Below, in pieces: positions 22,992 to 28,985 of a stretch of 64,000 nucleotides of DNA (its first letter is position 1; each line of letters begins with the position of its first letter). This DNA is from Dictyostelium discoideum (lineage: Eukaryota): NCBI GenBank assembly GCA_000004695.1, contig CM000154.2, positions 1,088,001 through 1,152,000 of the forward strand, read 5' to 3'. Under the pieces are notes generated by a model. It ran no database searches. It was given only the letters and a program-made list of their open reading frames with translations, and was not told the DNA's origin. The position numbers and the translations under genes are program-made.

Positions 22992-25900
22992 ATGAAAAAT
23001 ATAATAAAATATTTATTTATTTTTCTTTGTTTTCTAATTATTACAGAAGGTAAAAATTTATATTCATTTTGTTTTTTATTTGTTTATTTATTTTAATCTA
23101 ACCAAAAGTTTAATTATTTCAATTTAGCAACACATTTCCGTTATGGTACTATTTCATGGGCTCCAACCACAAAATATAACAACATTAAAATAACGGTGAA
23201 TTTAGCCTTCAGAACAGGATATTGGGGCAGTGTAGCAATTGGTCAACAGATTTCTCATGGAAACATTGATTTTGGAGATAATACAAAAACTGGTCTTACA
23301 ATGACCGTTACAAGTAAGGATACTGATAATGAATGGTTTACTGCAACTTGGAGTGGAATACATGAATATTCTCCTCAACCAACAGCACAGACTAAAAACT
23401 ACATAGTCGTTTACAAAGATTGTTGTAGAATTAGCACACTTTTGAACAATGGTGATCAATATTGGCATATTTCAGCTGGAATTCAAATCGATAGTTCAAA
23501 TGCATTTCCTAATGTCAATTGGTCTCCAGTGACAAACATGATGCCAATCGTTAGGGTTATTGCTAATAAAAATAACAATTTCCGTATTATCGCCAATGAC
23601 CAAAATAAACAAACTGCTCTATCTTATAAATTCACTGATACTTGGACAATGGATCAACCACCTGGTATGACCGTTGATTCTATAAATGGTAACTGTTGGT
23701 TTTTGCCAACAAAAGAGGGTCTTTACTCCACTCAAATTAAAGTAACCGATGCTCTTGGTGCTTATGTTGTAGTTGATTTTCTTCTTCAAACATACACTGA
23801 AGTTGGTAAATGTGACCCAACCTGTTCAAATGCTGATGCCTCTTGCACTTCAAACTCCCAATGTACAAAATGTTCAAATACTGGCTCCAACTCAATCAAT
23901 ACTTGTACAAATATACAATCACCACCAGAATTTATCATCCCAACACCAAAAAATGGTGAAACAATACTTTTCCCAATTGATAAAAGCTCTGAATTTTATC
24001 TTTCATGTAAAACACCATATGCTTCCAGAACTGCATCAATTACCACATCAAGTATACCAACAGAGCTTGCATTAACAACCACTTCAACAGGCCAAACCAA
24101 TTCGATAAAATACTCATGGTCACCGAAAACTTCTTCAATTGGTTCCTATGTTATTTCTGCTCTATGTAAAGACTCTTCAGGATTAACTTCCGAGGTCCGT
24201 TCATTTACAATCCGTATTGGTAAGTTTAATTGTCCAACCATAGAAAACTTTTTTTATTTGGTTTAAAAATTTTCAATATATGTATTAATTTATTGTTTTT
24301 TAATTTTAGAAAAACCTGAATGTGGTAATGGAGGAATAAAGGGTGGTGACGGTAAATGTGTTTGTATAGGAAATTGGGATACTATTTATCAATGTTTTGA
24401 ATGTAAGGATGGTTTCTATGGAGATAAATGTACTGTTTTACCACCATGTAAAAATGGTGTACCAAATGGTGGTGTGAATGGTGATGGTAAATGTTTATGT
24501 AACAATGGTTGGACTGGAAGTGATTGTAGTGTCTCCAATTCTCAAAGTTGTGGTTCAATGACAAGTAGTATTCTTTCTTCTTCAAATGCTGTATCATCAT
24601 ATTTAAATCCAATTAAAGCTCAAGTTTATCTAGCTAATGATAAAAAGTTTGATTTTCCACTTGTTCTCAGTATTCCAAGTACACTTTCTAAACTTGACGT
24701 TTACCTTTTGGTAGATGCAAATATGAATTCAGCTGCAACTTTTTTAAACATATATAATGGTATGGATAATTTTATTTCTTCAGTTAAAAAATTTGCCGAA
24801 GATACTCAGTTTGGTTTAGGTATATTCAGTGATTACCCAAGTAATTCTATTACATTCCAACCAAATTCAAATATTGGTTCTGATATCTCCTCTGCTATTC
24901 GTGAATTTAAACCTTCATCCTATTCTTCCTCATCAAACGGTAACTCACTTTTGGCTGCAACTCAAGCATCATCTGCACAAGTTGGTTGGAATAGTGGTTC
25001 ATTTAAAGTTATTGTAATTATTACCGATATTGATTATCAGGCAAATCCAACAGAGAAATCAAGTTTTACTAATTCATTGATTGATAAATCTGTTGTTCCT
25101 GTTGTAATCGGATTTGGTTCTCCAATTCCTAATTGGGGAGCCTCAATTTCATCCAACGGATTTGGATATACTGTACAATCAGCAATAACTTCTGGTGATT
25201 GGTCAACAAAAGCAGCTGCTGGAATTAAAGCTGTATCAAGTAAACTCGTTTATAAATCAGGTGAAATGGCCAATGGTAAATCTCTTGTTACTTCATTACC
25301 AATTGGTGAAACCATTACACAATCAACCCAAAAAACCGTTACAATTTCTCTTTTAAAACCAGCAACTACAAATATTGAATCACCAGTTGCAAAGGTGTCT
25401 GTTATGGGTTATGGACAAACTGTTATTTCTATTAATTCCAATCGTCAACCAACCGTATCCAATTCTGGTTTCTCTGTTGATCAAAATTCGTTTGCTACAT
25501 TCAAATTGACAGGAAGTGATGCAGATTTAAATATTTTAACATTTAAATTTACATCATTTTTGGATAGTACTGCAGGTATTATTACAAGTAGTTCAGGTGT
25601 GGATGTTTCAACCCAAACAAATACTTTTTATTCATCGACTGAAGTTTTCAAATTTACACCAAAAAAGAATTATATCGCCACTTCTTCAATTTCATTCATT
25701 GCCAATGATGGTTGTGTTGATAGTACTGCAGCAACTATTACAATCACTATCAATAGAATTAACCAAGCACCAGAATGTCAACCAATAACAATAAATGCCT
25801 TGTTAAACCAACAAGTTGGAATTTCATTGAGTGCTAGTGATTTCGAAGATGTTGCATCAAAGATTGCTATATTTGTTTCCAACCCATCGCCATTGACTGT

Positions 25901-28900
25901 CTATGGTTCATTTAATTATCAAGATAAACCAATTACAACAACCACAACAATTAATAACCCATGGCAATTAACCTTTAAACAAATTGTAAATCCACCATCA
26001 GCTATATCTGTTGGAGTTCCATTTAAATCAAGAGATAGTGCCTCGCTTTATTCAAAAGAATGTTTAATAACCGTTAATTTTGTACACACTAATGAAGCAC
26101 CAATTTCATCATCTTTATCACCTGTCCCAGTTAATCCAAGAGATAAAACAACAATAACTTTGACATCCACAGATTATGACTCAACAAGTGCCACATTTAA
26201 TATTAAATCATTTACAACAGGTACTGATGGTAAGGGTACTTTTTACATTTGTCCACAATTGGGTGATTGTTCTTGTACAACAACACAAATAAAATTACAA
26301 AAAAACTATGTATCAAGCGCAGTTTCATATTCAACCAATATTGCCAATCTTGGAATTTGTTTCTCTAATGATCAATCAAGTCAAATTACCGATTATGCTT
26401 CTGTCACTTTTACTTCAACTGATAACCAAGGTTTAGAATCATTACCAGTCACTGTAAATATTAATGTTGTTGGTACTCGTCCAAATAGTCCACCTACAAT
26501 TATTTCAATTCCGAAATATTCTGTTTTCCAAGATTATAAAGACTATGATAAAAGTAGTAAAATAATTGATGGTACAGATACAGACCAAGATGATTATGAC
26601 AAATCCCAAGGTGTAAACAATTTAATTGCCGTTATCACTGAGAAACCAAAAAAAGGTACACTATATTTGAAAAATGATGGTAGTGTCGCTTCAAATTCCC
26701 CAGCTCCAATGGAAATTTATTATGTCCCAAATCCAGGTACTTTTGGAGATGATACCTATTCATACAAAGTTATTGATACTCTTCAAGCTTCATCAACCAT
26801 TGCAACTACAACTGTCTCTGTCATTCAAATTAATCATAAACCATCTGTTAGTGCCGATTCCTATTCATTTACATCCCAAGATGTCCAATTCGAAAAATCA
26901 TTAGTTACTAGTGATTTCGATGGAGACCAAGTAAATTGTCAAGTTATTGCACTTCCAAACCAAATCAGTATGTATGATTCTGAAGGTATTTTAATCACCC
27001 AAGTTCCTGCCAAACTTTCCAAAAATTCTTACAGCTTTAGACTTTTAGATCCTTCATTGATCATACCTTCACCATTTTCAAATGTTCAATCACAATTTAC
27101 TGTTAATTGTTTGGATGTTACTAGTAAAACCGATCCATTTGGCCCATTACAAAGTGATGATCTTATTGTAAATGTTGGATATATCTATATTAATACTCCA
27201 CCAAAAACTAAAACTCTTACTGTACAACTTGATCAAGATACAAGCAAGGCATTTACATTTAATGGCGATGATATTGAAACACCCACATCGGATCTTAAAG
27301 TAAAGATTTTCTCATTACCAACCAATGGTAGACTTTCAAACCAATATGGCTACCTTAATGGAACATCCATTTCCAGTAGAACTTATTACCTCAATGAATT
27401 AACCTATACTCCAAATGCTGGTCTTTCCAATTGGGACACTGAAGATAATAATAGTCCACTCGATAAAATTTCATATGCTGTTTTAGATAAAGGAGGTCTT
27501 TCTTCAGAGACTGATTTAGTTTATTTTAGTGTTAGACCAAGAAATCCACCAATTTATACTGGTAAAGATGAAATTAATGTATTACAAAACACTCGTTATC
27601 CATTGACAATCATTGGTGAAATTGGTAATGGTGGCTCATCTGTGGCAATTAGTGTCGTTAGTTTCACTGGTAATGGTACATTATATGAAACATTCAATAT
27701 GGGTAGCGAAGGTACAATTGATAGACAAATCTCATCCTATCCAGTCAATAGAAGCGATTCTTTGGTAGGATCCTACTTTTATGCATATAAACCACCACAC
27801 AACCAATATGGAGATGATTTTGATACAATTACATTCGTACTTATTGATGGTGATCTTGTTTCAAAGATTTATACTGTCACTGTTAATGTTATTCATGTAA
27901 ATCAACCACCAACAATCAAATTAATTAGTTATAAAGTTTTGGGAGGTTCTGGTAAAGAAATTGAATTTGGTTCAAATTCAACTGTTAATATGAATATAAA
28001 TACCATGGCACTTGTTAAATATATTGGTAACGATATTGATAAAGATCAAGTTGGTCCATTAGGTTCCAAAGTTTTAAATATTCCTTTAACTGGTACCATT
28101 TATAAATTTAATAATGAAACAACTCCATTAGGTGCCATTATTAAAGACAAAAATTTAAATATTGAAAGAAATGATGATGGTTTCTATTATTTTGTATTTG
28201 TTCCAATTAAAGGTAGTACCGGTCAAGGATATGCTCGTGTTCCATTGATTGTCATTGATGATGGTGGTCTCGTTTCTCCATCTGAATCTGTTGACTTCAA
28301 TGTAAACAATATTAATATTCCACCAGTAATTACAATTGATAAAGAAAAGAGATCTTATTCTCTTCTAACCAATCTTACAATATCTGCAACCAAGATAACA
28401 TTTGATGACCCAGATTCTAAAAACAATGATGTGTCAATTACCATTTCAATTGTTGGTGAAAAAGATGAAACTGTTGTACCATTTTCAAATGTTAGCTTCA
28501 CTGTTACCACTGGTAAAGCAACATGTAAACCTGATTCAACTTTATCAAGTATTACTTGTGTTGGTAAAAAATCAGAACTTAATAAAGTAATCTCCAAAAT
28601 TGATATTATTGCAAAAGTAGCTGGAAATTATCGTCTTAAAGTATTTGTTGATGATTTAGGTTATAATTCACCAATTTCAATTAGAAGTTCAACACATTTG
28701 AACGCTACCGATTATGTAACTTTGCAAATTTCCTCGCCAGAAGTAACAACTCAAAATTCTAGTAATAAAACTGTTTTATCTGGTGCTATTGCTGGTGCTG
28801 CCGCTGGTACTGCTTTGATTGCTGCCGCTATGTGGAAAATGTTAAGAAAAGCTGCTCCACCAACTGATGCATTCTTTGATGAAGGTGCTTTCCTTGGTGA

Positions 28901-28985
28901 TGGTGTTAACTCTAATCCAATGTATCAAGAATCAAAGAATGGTGGTGAAAATCCATTATACTTGGCTTCAAATGAAACATTATAG
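22992..28985 (+). CDS. Sib-family (similar to integrin beta) type-I transmembrane adhesion receptor. Exons are 22992..23049, 23128..24219 and 24310..28985, giving about 1941 aa.
   Basis: Exon 1 encodes a signal peptide, MKNIIKYLFIFLCFLIITE|G, and ends at the GT donor at 23050. Exon 2 starts ATHFRYGTISWAPTT.. and ends at GTAAGT at 24220. Exon 3 begins with EGF-like Cys repeats (CGNGGIKGGDGKCVCIGNWD...CNNGWTGSDC). A VWA/integrin-beta-I-like segment follows (LDVYLLVDANMNSAATF...IVIITDIDYQ), then a very long extracellular repeat region. A single Gly/Ala-rich TM helix (VLSGAIAGAAAGTALIAAAMW) precedes a short cytoplasmic tail with two NPxY motifs (NPMYQESKNGGENPLYLASNETL). The stop is TAG at 28983-28985. 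Confidence 0.7.

Follow-up and report, generated by a model that had tools for sequence, protein, structure and literature searches.

Canonical heterodimeric integrins are lacking in Dictyostelium (PMC9197732, PMC12686525), and the five Sib (‘similar to integrin beta’) surface receptors of this organism are viewed as functional equivalents rather than as canonical integrin beta subunits (ITGB) (PMC9453864, PMC12686525, bioRxiv 10.1101/2020.04.29.069435). Phylogenomic studies find Sib in Dictyostelia only and likewise do not treat it as canonical ITGB (bioRxiv 10.1101/2020.04.29.069435; PMC9453864). According to one review (PMC9197732), each of the five Sib proteins binds talin A through its cytosolic domain (citing Cornillon 2006), the membrane-proximal NPxY motif of SibA is essential for talin binding (Cornillon 2006, as relayed in reviews), and SibA and SibC are the only Sib forms abundant in vegetative cells. 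SibA and SibC mediate adhesion to substrate and particles in the published work; loss of sibA or sibC lowers adhesion (PMC9197732; PMC3279395), and cells deficient in SibA lose the tension across talin A (PMC12686525). SibB to SibE are described in a further review as ‘not yet studied in detail’ (PMC11552500), and the sibB transcript is reported to climb progressively under chronic hypoxia, together with aggregation-stage adhesion genes (PMC12750705). The locus described here lies at positions 22992-28985 of a 64,000-nucleotide stretch of the D. discoideum genome (GenBank assembly GCA_000004695.1, contig CM000154.2, positions 1,088,001 to 1,152,000), referred to below as the window. It is the sibB gene, and all of its features are on the + strand.

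Three exons of the window, when spliced, give a coding sequence (CDS) of 5826 nt that translates into 1941 aa with no internal stop, and an exact-sequence look-up found all 1941 residues to be identical to those of EAL63396.1 / XP_636909.1 / UniRef100_Q54JE1, ‘Integrin beta-like protein B’. The locus is therefore the catalogued D. discoideum AX4 gene sibB (SIBB_DICDI, UniProt Q54JE1). As sibB was already annotated and named, and the family was described in 2006, the finding itself is ordinary. The original prediction, which was made from the sequence alone, had proposed a ‘Sib-like’ adhesion receptor and a type I membrane protein of about 1941 aa; the first is supported, the protein being SibB itself, and the second was confirmed, as the protein has a signal peptide (aa 1-20) and one transmembrane segment (aa 1872-1892, VLSGAIAGAAAGTALIAAAMW) as its only two hydrophobic segments. 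A homology search retrieved 22 dictyostelid relatives of the Sib family at 26-90% identity (23 rows including SibB), from D. discoideum strains, D. cf. discoideum, D. firmibasis, D. citrinum, D. dimigraforme, Tieghemostelium and Heterostelium, and orthologues of SibB itself, at 65-90% identity, are present in D. cf. discoideum and D. firmibasis. SibA and SibC/D/E (Cornillon 2006, 2008) match SibB in domain order and in their Sib-specific Pfam domains. Between SibB and the other paralogue groups, the ectodomain is 37-54% identical and the tail is nearly invariant.

The transmembrane helix (VLSGAIAGAAAGTALIAAAMW, 28773..28835) is Gly/Ala-rich, includes two tandem GxxxG motifs in the segment GAIAGAAAG, and has the highest hydropathy of any part of the protein besides the signal peptide. 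It is followed by a cytoplasmic tail of 49 residues (aa 1893-1941; 28836..28985 with the stop codon), which aligns with the family and in which translation places NPMY at aa 1919-1922 (28914-28925) and NPLY at aa 1931-1934 (28950-28961), 8 residues further on. A Gly/Ala-rich helix followed by NPMY and NPLY was what had been predicted. These two are the only copies of NPxY in the 1941 residues and both lie in the tail, where 0.0076 copies would be expected and two or more would arise by chance with a probability of ~3e-5. When 25 Sib homologues were aligned, the last 95 residues showed no internal gaps across the Sib proteins, so that the transmembrane region and tail correspond column by column, as the prediction required, and the family pattern of this region reads NKTVL(S/T)GAIAGA...W...PPTD.FF.E..F...V..NP.Y........NP.Y. 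SibA-type proteins share both the NPMYQES...NPLY residues and the spacing of the twin NPxY motifs with SibB. In human integrin beta-1, the tail carries NPIY-8-NPKY.

In one paralogue group found in D. discoideum (P0019, P0020 and P0021; 1940-1957 aa, 43% identical to SibB), the membrane-proximal NPIY is kept and the second motif is SRIY. The distal NPxY is thus dispensable in at least one member of the family.

The proposed mechanism of SibB rests on published family work. SibB would be delivered to the cell surface, where its ectodomain would contact the substrate or a particle, and the first NPxY of the tail would dock the FERM/PTB-like domain of talin A, with the talin-myosin VII complex. 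Talin docking would couple SibB to actin, and force would be transmitted as in integrin adhesions. An alpha subunit would not be needed for this, and a canonical metal site at the metal-ion-dependent adhesion site (MIDAS) is probably unused. SibB would act as a minor or conditionally expressed paralogue, scarce in vegetative cells and with a transcript that rises in chronic hypoxia. That the locus is sibB and that its product works by this talin-coupled mechanism are, as a joint explanation, the best account of the data, and are held with high confidence.

Several points weigh against this account. Binding of talin A by the SibB tail rests on a second-hand statement in a review (PMC9197732), and the literature searched yielded no knockout, localisation or ligand specific to sibB. 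The MIDAS position in SibB reads D519-A-N-M-N-S (aa 519-524, 24714-24731); the consensus in the Sib family is D-x-N/Q-x-x-S, where invariance is limited to the first Asp and to T622-D623 further on, and a motif of the form DxNxN/S, not DxSxS, makes ligand binding through a metal ion appear doubtful. Surface delivery is a further point. The Gly-rich transmembrane domain of SibA confers delivery dependent on Phg1A/TM9, the association with TM9/Phg1A is reported to rise with the number of glycines, and five transmembrane glycines have been described as conserved in SibB to SibE (PMC4510845). SibB and its orthologues have three glycines in this helix (GAIAGAAAG), as compared with five in SibA-type proteins (GAIAGAAAGAGLLAAGAW). 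With three of the five SibA glycines, the dependence of SibB on Phg1A may differ, and is perhaps weaker.

The ectodomain of SibB consists, in order after the signal peptide, of three Ig-like domains, two EGF-like repeats, a VWA domain within a beta-sandwich, and about nine Ig/cadherin-like modules that lead to the transmembrane helix and the 49-residue tail. The three N-terminal domains are identified by Pfam as SIBA-E_N (aa 24-141, 23139-23492; 177.9 bits, 8e-53), Ig_SIBA-E_2nd (aa 154-270, 23529-23879; 186.9 bits, 1e-55) and Ig_SIBA-E_3rd (aa 291-369, 23940-24176; 46.1 bits, 6e-12). These are followed by vWA_SIBA-E (PF24909) at aa 480-759 (269.3 bits, 5e-80) and by Ig_SibA in four stretches (202.4 bits, 3e-60). 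The gathering cut-offs of the five Sib-specific domains are 27-28 bits, and all were passed. The predicted EGF-like Cys repeats are present as two Cys-rich repeats at aa 386-466 (24315..24557), with 11 Cys in columns that are invariant in the family. When this segment was scanned alone, EGF_Teneurin matched in two stretches at 26.6 bits against a cut-off of 24.3, although it was below threshold in the scan of the whole protein. The VWA/beta-I-like segment was also as anticipated. The generic VWA profile PF00092 matched aa 513-658 (1.6e-7), with 32.2 bits when all of SibB was scanned and 37.8 bits for the segment alone, above the cut-off of 23.8 in both cases, and the Rossmann domain as a whole is placed at aa 509-695 (24684..25244).

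Between the VWA region and the membrane, the stalk (aa 761-1860, 25440..28739) is made up of about nine divergent Ig/cadherin-like modules of 110-145 aa each, the boundaries of which were cut by eye; a hand-made regular expression for the linkers did not delimit them. Ig_SibA and Cadherin_4, the latter also above its cut-off, each match in four stretches, and Big_9 matches as well, so that five of the nine modules are covered by these profiles. The strongest is an Ig_SibA module at aa 1581-1715, with 1e-52 when scanned alone. Self-BLAST of SibB for internal repeats found nothing at E<0.01. Hence, the ‘huge repeat ectodomain’ proposed earlier stands as an array of about nine modules, but not as recognisable repeats, the modules being very divergent and detected by hidden Markov models rather than by self-BLAST. 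In the Sib literature, this stalk is the part described as bacterial-type repeats. Its matches to Cadherin_4, Big_9 and Cadherin_5 are shared with bacterial VCBS, cadherin-like and Big_9 repeat adhesins; unlike SibB, the bacterial VCBS-type proteins retrieved here (P0029 and P0030) are without the Sib N-terminal domains, the transmembrane helix and the NPxY tail.

Past the dictyostelid set, the matches were two proteins of 2712-3016 aa and, as the weakest full-length ones, two such bacterial-type VCBS/cadherin-like proteins. The former two (P0027, 3016 aa; P0028, 2712 aa), encoded on short NCBI contigs, have a VWA domain, long VCBS/cadherin-like arrays, a single transmembrane segment, and a tail of the Sib type in which NPFY occurs once. 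They are possible Sib relatives beyond the named dictyostelids, which would bear on the claim that Sib is found in Dictyostelia only.

SibB resembles the metazoan integrin beta subunits (beta-1, -2, -3, -6, -7 and -8; 10-13% identity) in its type I topology, in a transmembrane segment that contains GxxxG, and in a short tail where 8 residues separate two NPxY motifs; the literature adds talin as a shared partner. In SibB, the EGF-like pair is N-terminal to the VWA domain, an order opposite to that of integrin beta with its C-terminal I-EGF stalk and beta-tail domain, and the N-terminus is formed by three Ig/cadherin-like sandwiches. SibB has an 1100-aa Ig/cadherin-like stalk, unlike metazoan integrin beta, and is without the membrane-proximal HDR(R/K)E motif. 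Integrin beta pairs with an alpha subunit, whereas none is known for SibB. No Pfam match to the PSI, I-EGF or beta-tail domains was found in SibB. The Integrin_beta profile (PF00362) reached 16.9 bits against a cut-off of 24.8, over profile positions 6-59 only, and the Integrin_b_cyt profile (PF08725) reached 13.1 bits against a cut-off of 23.4 (E 0.08), over positions 27-44, which is the part with the twin NPxY. By these profile thresholds, SibB is integrin-beta-like but not a canonical integrin beta. Of the integrin-beta-type tail and receptor in the original prediction, the twin-NPxY tail architecture of Sib stands, and the integrin-beta type of the receptor falls short of the thresholds of both profiles. 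The profile scores, the MIDAS, the order of the EGF-like repeats and the stalk all place SibB outside integrin beta, in agreement with the published view of Sib proteins as functional equivalents.

The predicted structure of the headpiece points in another direction. Residues 385-770 were modelled with AlphaFold2 from an alignment of the 23 family sequences and without templates (predicted local distance difference test, pLDDT, 84; predicted template modelling score, pTM, 0.74). In the model, the Rossmann fold is flanked by beta strands on both sides, before it at aa 470-505 (24567..24674) and after it at aa 698-760 (25251..25439; model strands 314-376, inside vWA_SIBA-E), which would correspond to the N-terminal and C-terminal halves of a hybrid-domain-like beta-sandwich. 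At the level of the predicted structure, the VWA domain thus lies within a hybrid-type beta-sandwich. When the model was compared with the PDB using Foldseek, the top 50 matches were all integrin beta chains (E 1e-15 to 1e-13, template modelling scores of ~0.5-0.6, ~380 aligned columns). Integrin beta headpieces aligned over 284-307 residues as against 160-185 in the comparison, and the ~100 extra residues match the flanking strands (36 + 63 residues).

A similar indication was obtained independently from the family profile. In a phmmer search with the whole of SibB, no match was found among the PDB sequences, and integrins were reached by the Sib family profile only. The alignments of this profile to integrin beta-2, beta-3 and beta-6 start ~30 residues upstream of the point where matches to generic VWA begin. 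The alignment spans the junction from the hybrid domain to beta-I, with ‘YINPTKVQVYL...LDVYVLVD’ in Sib set against ‘QLSPQKVTLYL...IDLYYLMD’ in beta-2, at a marginal E of 4e-4. The predicted model and the profile suggest that the ‘VWA’ of Sib is of beta-I-like type and sits as an insertion within a hybrid-like sandwich, and the structural comparison favours a real kinship between the Sib and integrin-beta headpieces. The argument draws on a single predicted model, from a program whose training included integrin structures, and no residue-level structural alignment enters into it. On this basis, the Sib headpiece has about an even chance of being a true integrin-beta headpiece that has diverged strongly, with beta-I within a hybrid domain and the MIDAS serines lost. 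No report of a hybrid-like domain in Sib was found in the literature searched, which excluded the primary papers of 2006 and 2008.

Alternatively, the likeness to integrin beta could be a convergent mosaic, put together independently within dictyostelids from a VWA domain of generic type, adhesin repeats of bacterial type and a short tail with NPxY. The scores of both integrin profiles below their cut-offs are as expected for such an origin, and so are the lack of both a DxSxS MIDAS and a PSI domain, the EGF-like repeats that precede the VWA domain, the Big_9 and Cadherin_4 modules of the stalk with bacterial VCBS proteins as distant relatives, and the confinement of Sib to Dictyostelia in published surveys. 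It would not account for a VWA domain that sits in a beta-sandwich contributing ~100 aligned residues to the match with beta headpieces, nor for a Sib profile that crosses the hybrid-to-beta-I junction of three integrin beta chains, and the insertion of one domain into another is hard to reach twice. A convergent origin is thus a serious candidate that falls a little short of an even chance.

A second alternative concerns the role of SibB rather than its origin. SibB may be a specialised or largely redundant paralogue, which acts for example in development, at low oxygen or on particular prey, and not a general receptor for substrate adhesion, its tail being conserved mainly for trafficking. 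NPxY motifs also serve as endocytic signals. The abundance of SibA and SibC alone in vegetative cells, as given in the review (PMC9197732), and the rise of the sibB transcript in chronic hypoxia alongside aggregation-stage adhesion genes (PMC12750705) fit such a role, as does an ectodomain that has diverged between paralogue groups above a nearly constant tail. The first 384 residues are the part of SibB that diverges most between strains, which is in keeping with the same possibility. On the other side, the tail of SibB hardly differs from that of SibA-type proteins near both motifs, and talin A binding is reported for all five tails in the same review. A specialised role is accordingly entertained as possible but rather doubtful. 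It concerns the time and place of action, and is compatible with the talin coupling proposed for SibB.

The gene model of sibB was checked by translating the window at the coordinates of every part. Exon 1 (22992..23049, 58 nt) includes the ATG at 22992, most of the signal peptide (MKNIIKYLFIFLCFLIITE) and one further nucleotide, and its N-terminus is that of Q54JE1. Intron 1 (23050..23127, 78 nt, GT..AG) interrupts the signal peptide after the first 58 nt, exactly where the original prediction had put it, and has an in-frame TAA when retained; without splicing, translation (MKNIIKYLFIFLCFLIITEGKNLYSFCFLFVYLF) stops after ...FVYLF. Exon 2 (23128..24219) carries the three N-terminal beta-sandwich domains. 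It is followed by intron 2 (24220..24309, 90 nt, GT..AG), without the removal of which the open reading frame (ORF) stops at 24266, and by exon 3 (24310..28985), which ends in TAA. As translation is cut short when either intron is retained, both must be spliced out. The first intron and the count of 1941 aa were thus correctly foreseen, while the second intron had gone unmentioned even though the count implies it. The splice pattern retains the transmembrane segment and the tail, and the product matches the reference protein. None of the refuting conditions attached to the original prediction (lack of a VWA match, a transmembrane region and tail unlike those of Sib, or splicing that removes either of these) held. 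Both exon junctions (ITEA|SHF and IRIEKPECG) are preserved in the D. firmibasis orthologue, at 65% identity, and hence the AX4 gene model is sound.

The 90% identity cluster of SibB also includes the two alternative D. discoideum models from other assemblies. In that of 1966 aa (P0002), intron 1 is open in the strain concerned and is read through as coding, and that of 1932 aa has a different start. A ‘protein’ of 356 aa in the same cluster is merely the unspliced ORF 23196-24266. The length of intron 1, 78 nt, is a multiple of three, and its annotation differs between D. discoideum strains (TAA in AX4, open elsewhere). That the gene model is an artefact of long ORFs joined via wrongly inferred introns, or the locus a pseudogene, as the differing automatic models might be taken to indicate, is extremely improbable and was rejected, given two GT..AG introns with in-frame stops when retained, 1941 open codons after splicing, junction residues conserved in orthologues of 65-90% identity, and domains that are all intact and above threshold. 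Three ORFs of 76-88 aa on the minus strand opposite the gene (23202-23468, 24382-24612 and 28355-28597) were likewise set aside as chance ORFs in a conserved coding region.

AT content is very high throughout the window (GC 14-37% in 2-kb segments), and its genes have short AT-rich introns and poly-Q/poly-N tracts, as expected for Dictyostelium. No second sib gene or fragment was detected by tblastn of SibB against the window, and tRNA and Rfam scans of the window returned nothing. Upstream of sibB lies an ORF for a SprT-like protein (19646-22390, + strand), and downstream one for a Cdc48/p97-type AAA ATPase (30973-33222, + strand). Further upstream are ORFs for a UBR-box/RING E3 ligase (1342-6480), a BPI/LBP-like protein (9948-11021) and 2-oxoglutarate dehydrogenase E1 (15570-17954). 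In the other direction, they encode a CoA transferase (34377-35618), a Neugrin-like protein (44899-46443, - strand), a MAM33 protein (47535-48500), an intron-split FGAR amidotransferase (53268-57420) and a protein kinase (60277-63873). The neighbours are thus ordinary and unrelated, with housekeeping genes further out, and there is no cluster of adhesion genes near sibB. The extreme skews at 40-42 kb (-0.55 for GC, +0.36 for AT) are due to an ORF on the + strand (38633-42550). It encodes 1305 aa with no Pfam match and consists mostly of poly-Q, poly-N and poly-T tracts and (EK)/(ER) repeats.

Talin-coupled adhesion in the absence of heterodimeric integrins has been studied best in the Sib proteins. 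The argument from the headpiece applies to the whole family and is the sole forward-looking element of the analysis of sibB. Should it be true, Sib would descend from an ancestral amorphean integrin beta, with the alpha partner dispensed with and a bacterial-type stalk gained, and would not be convergent. Whether Sib represents a diverged integrin beta or a convergent analogue bears on the origin of integrin adhesion.

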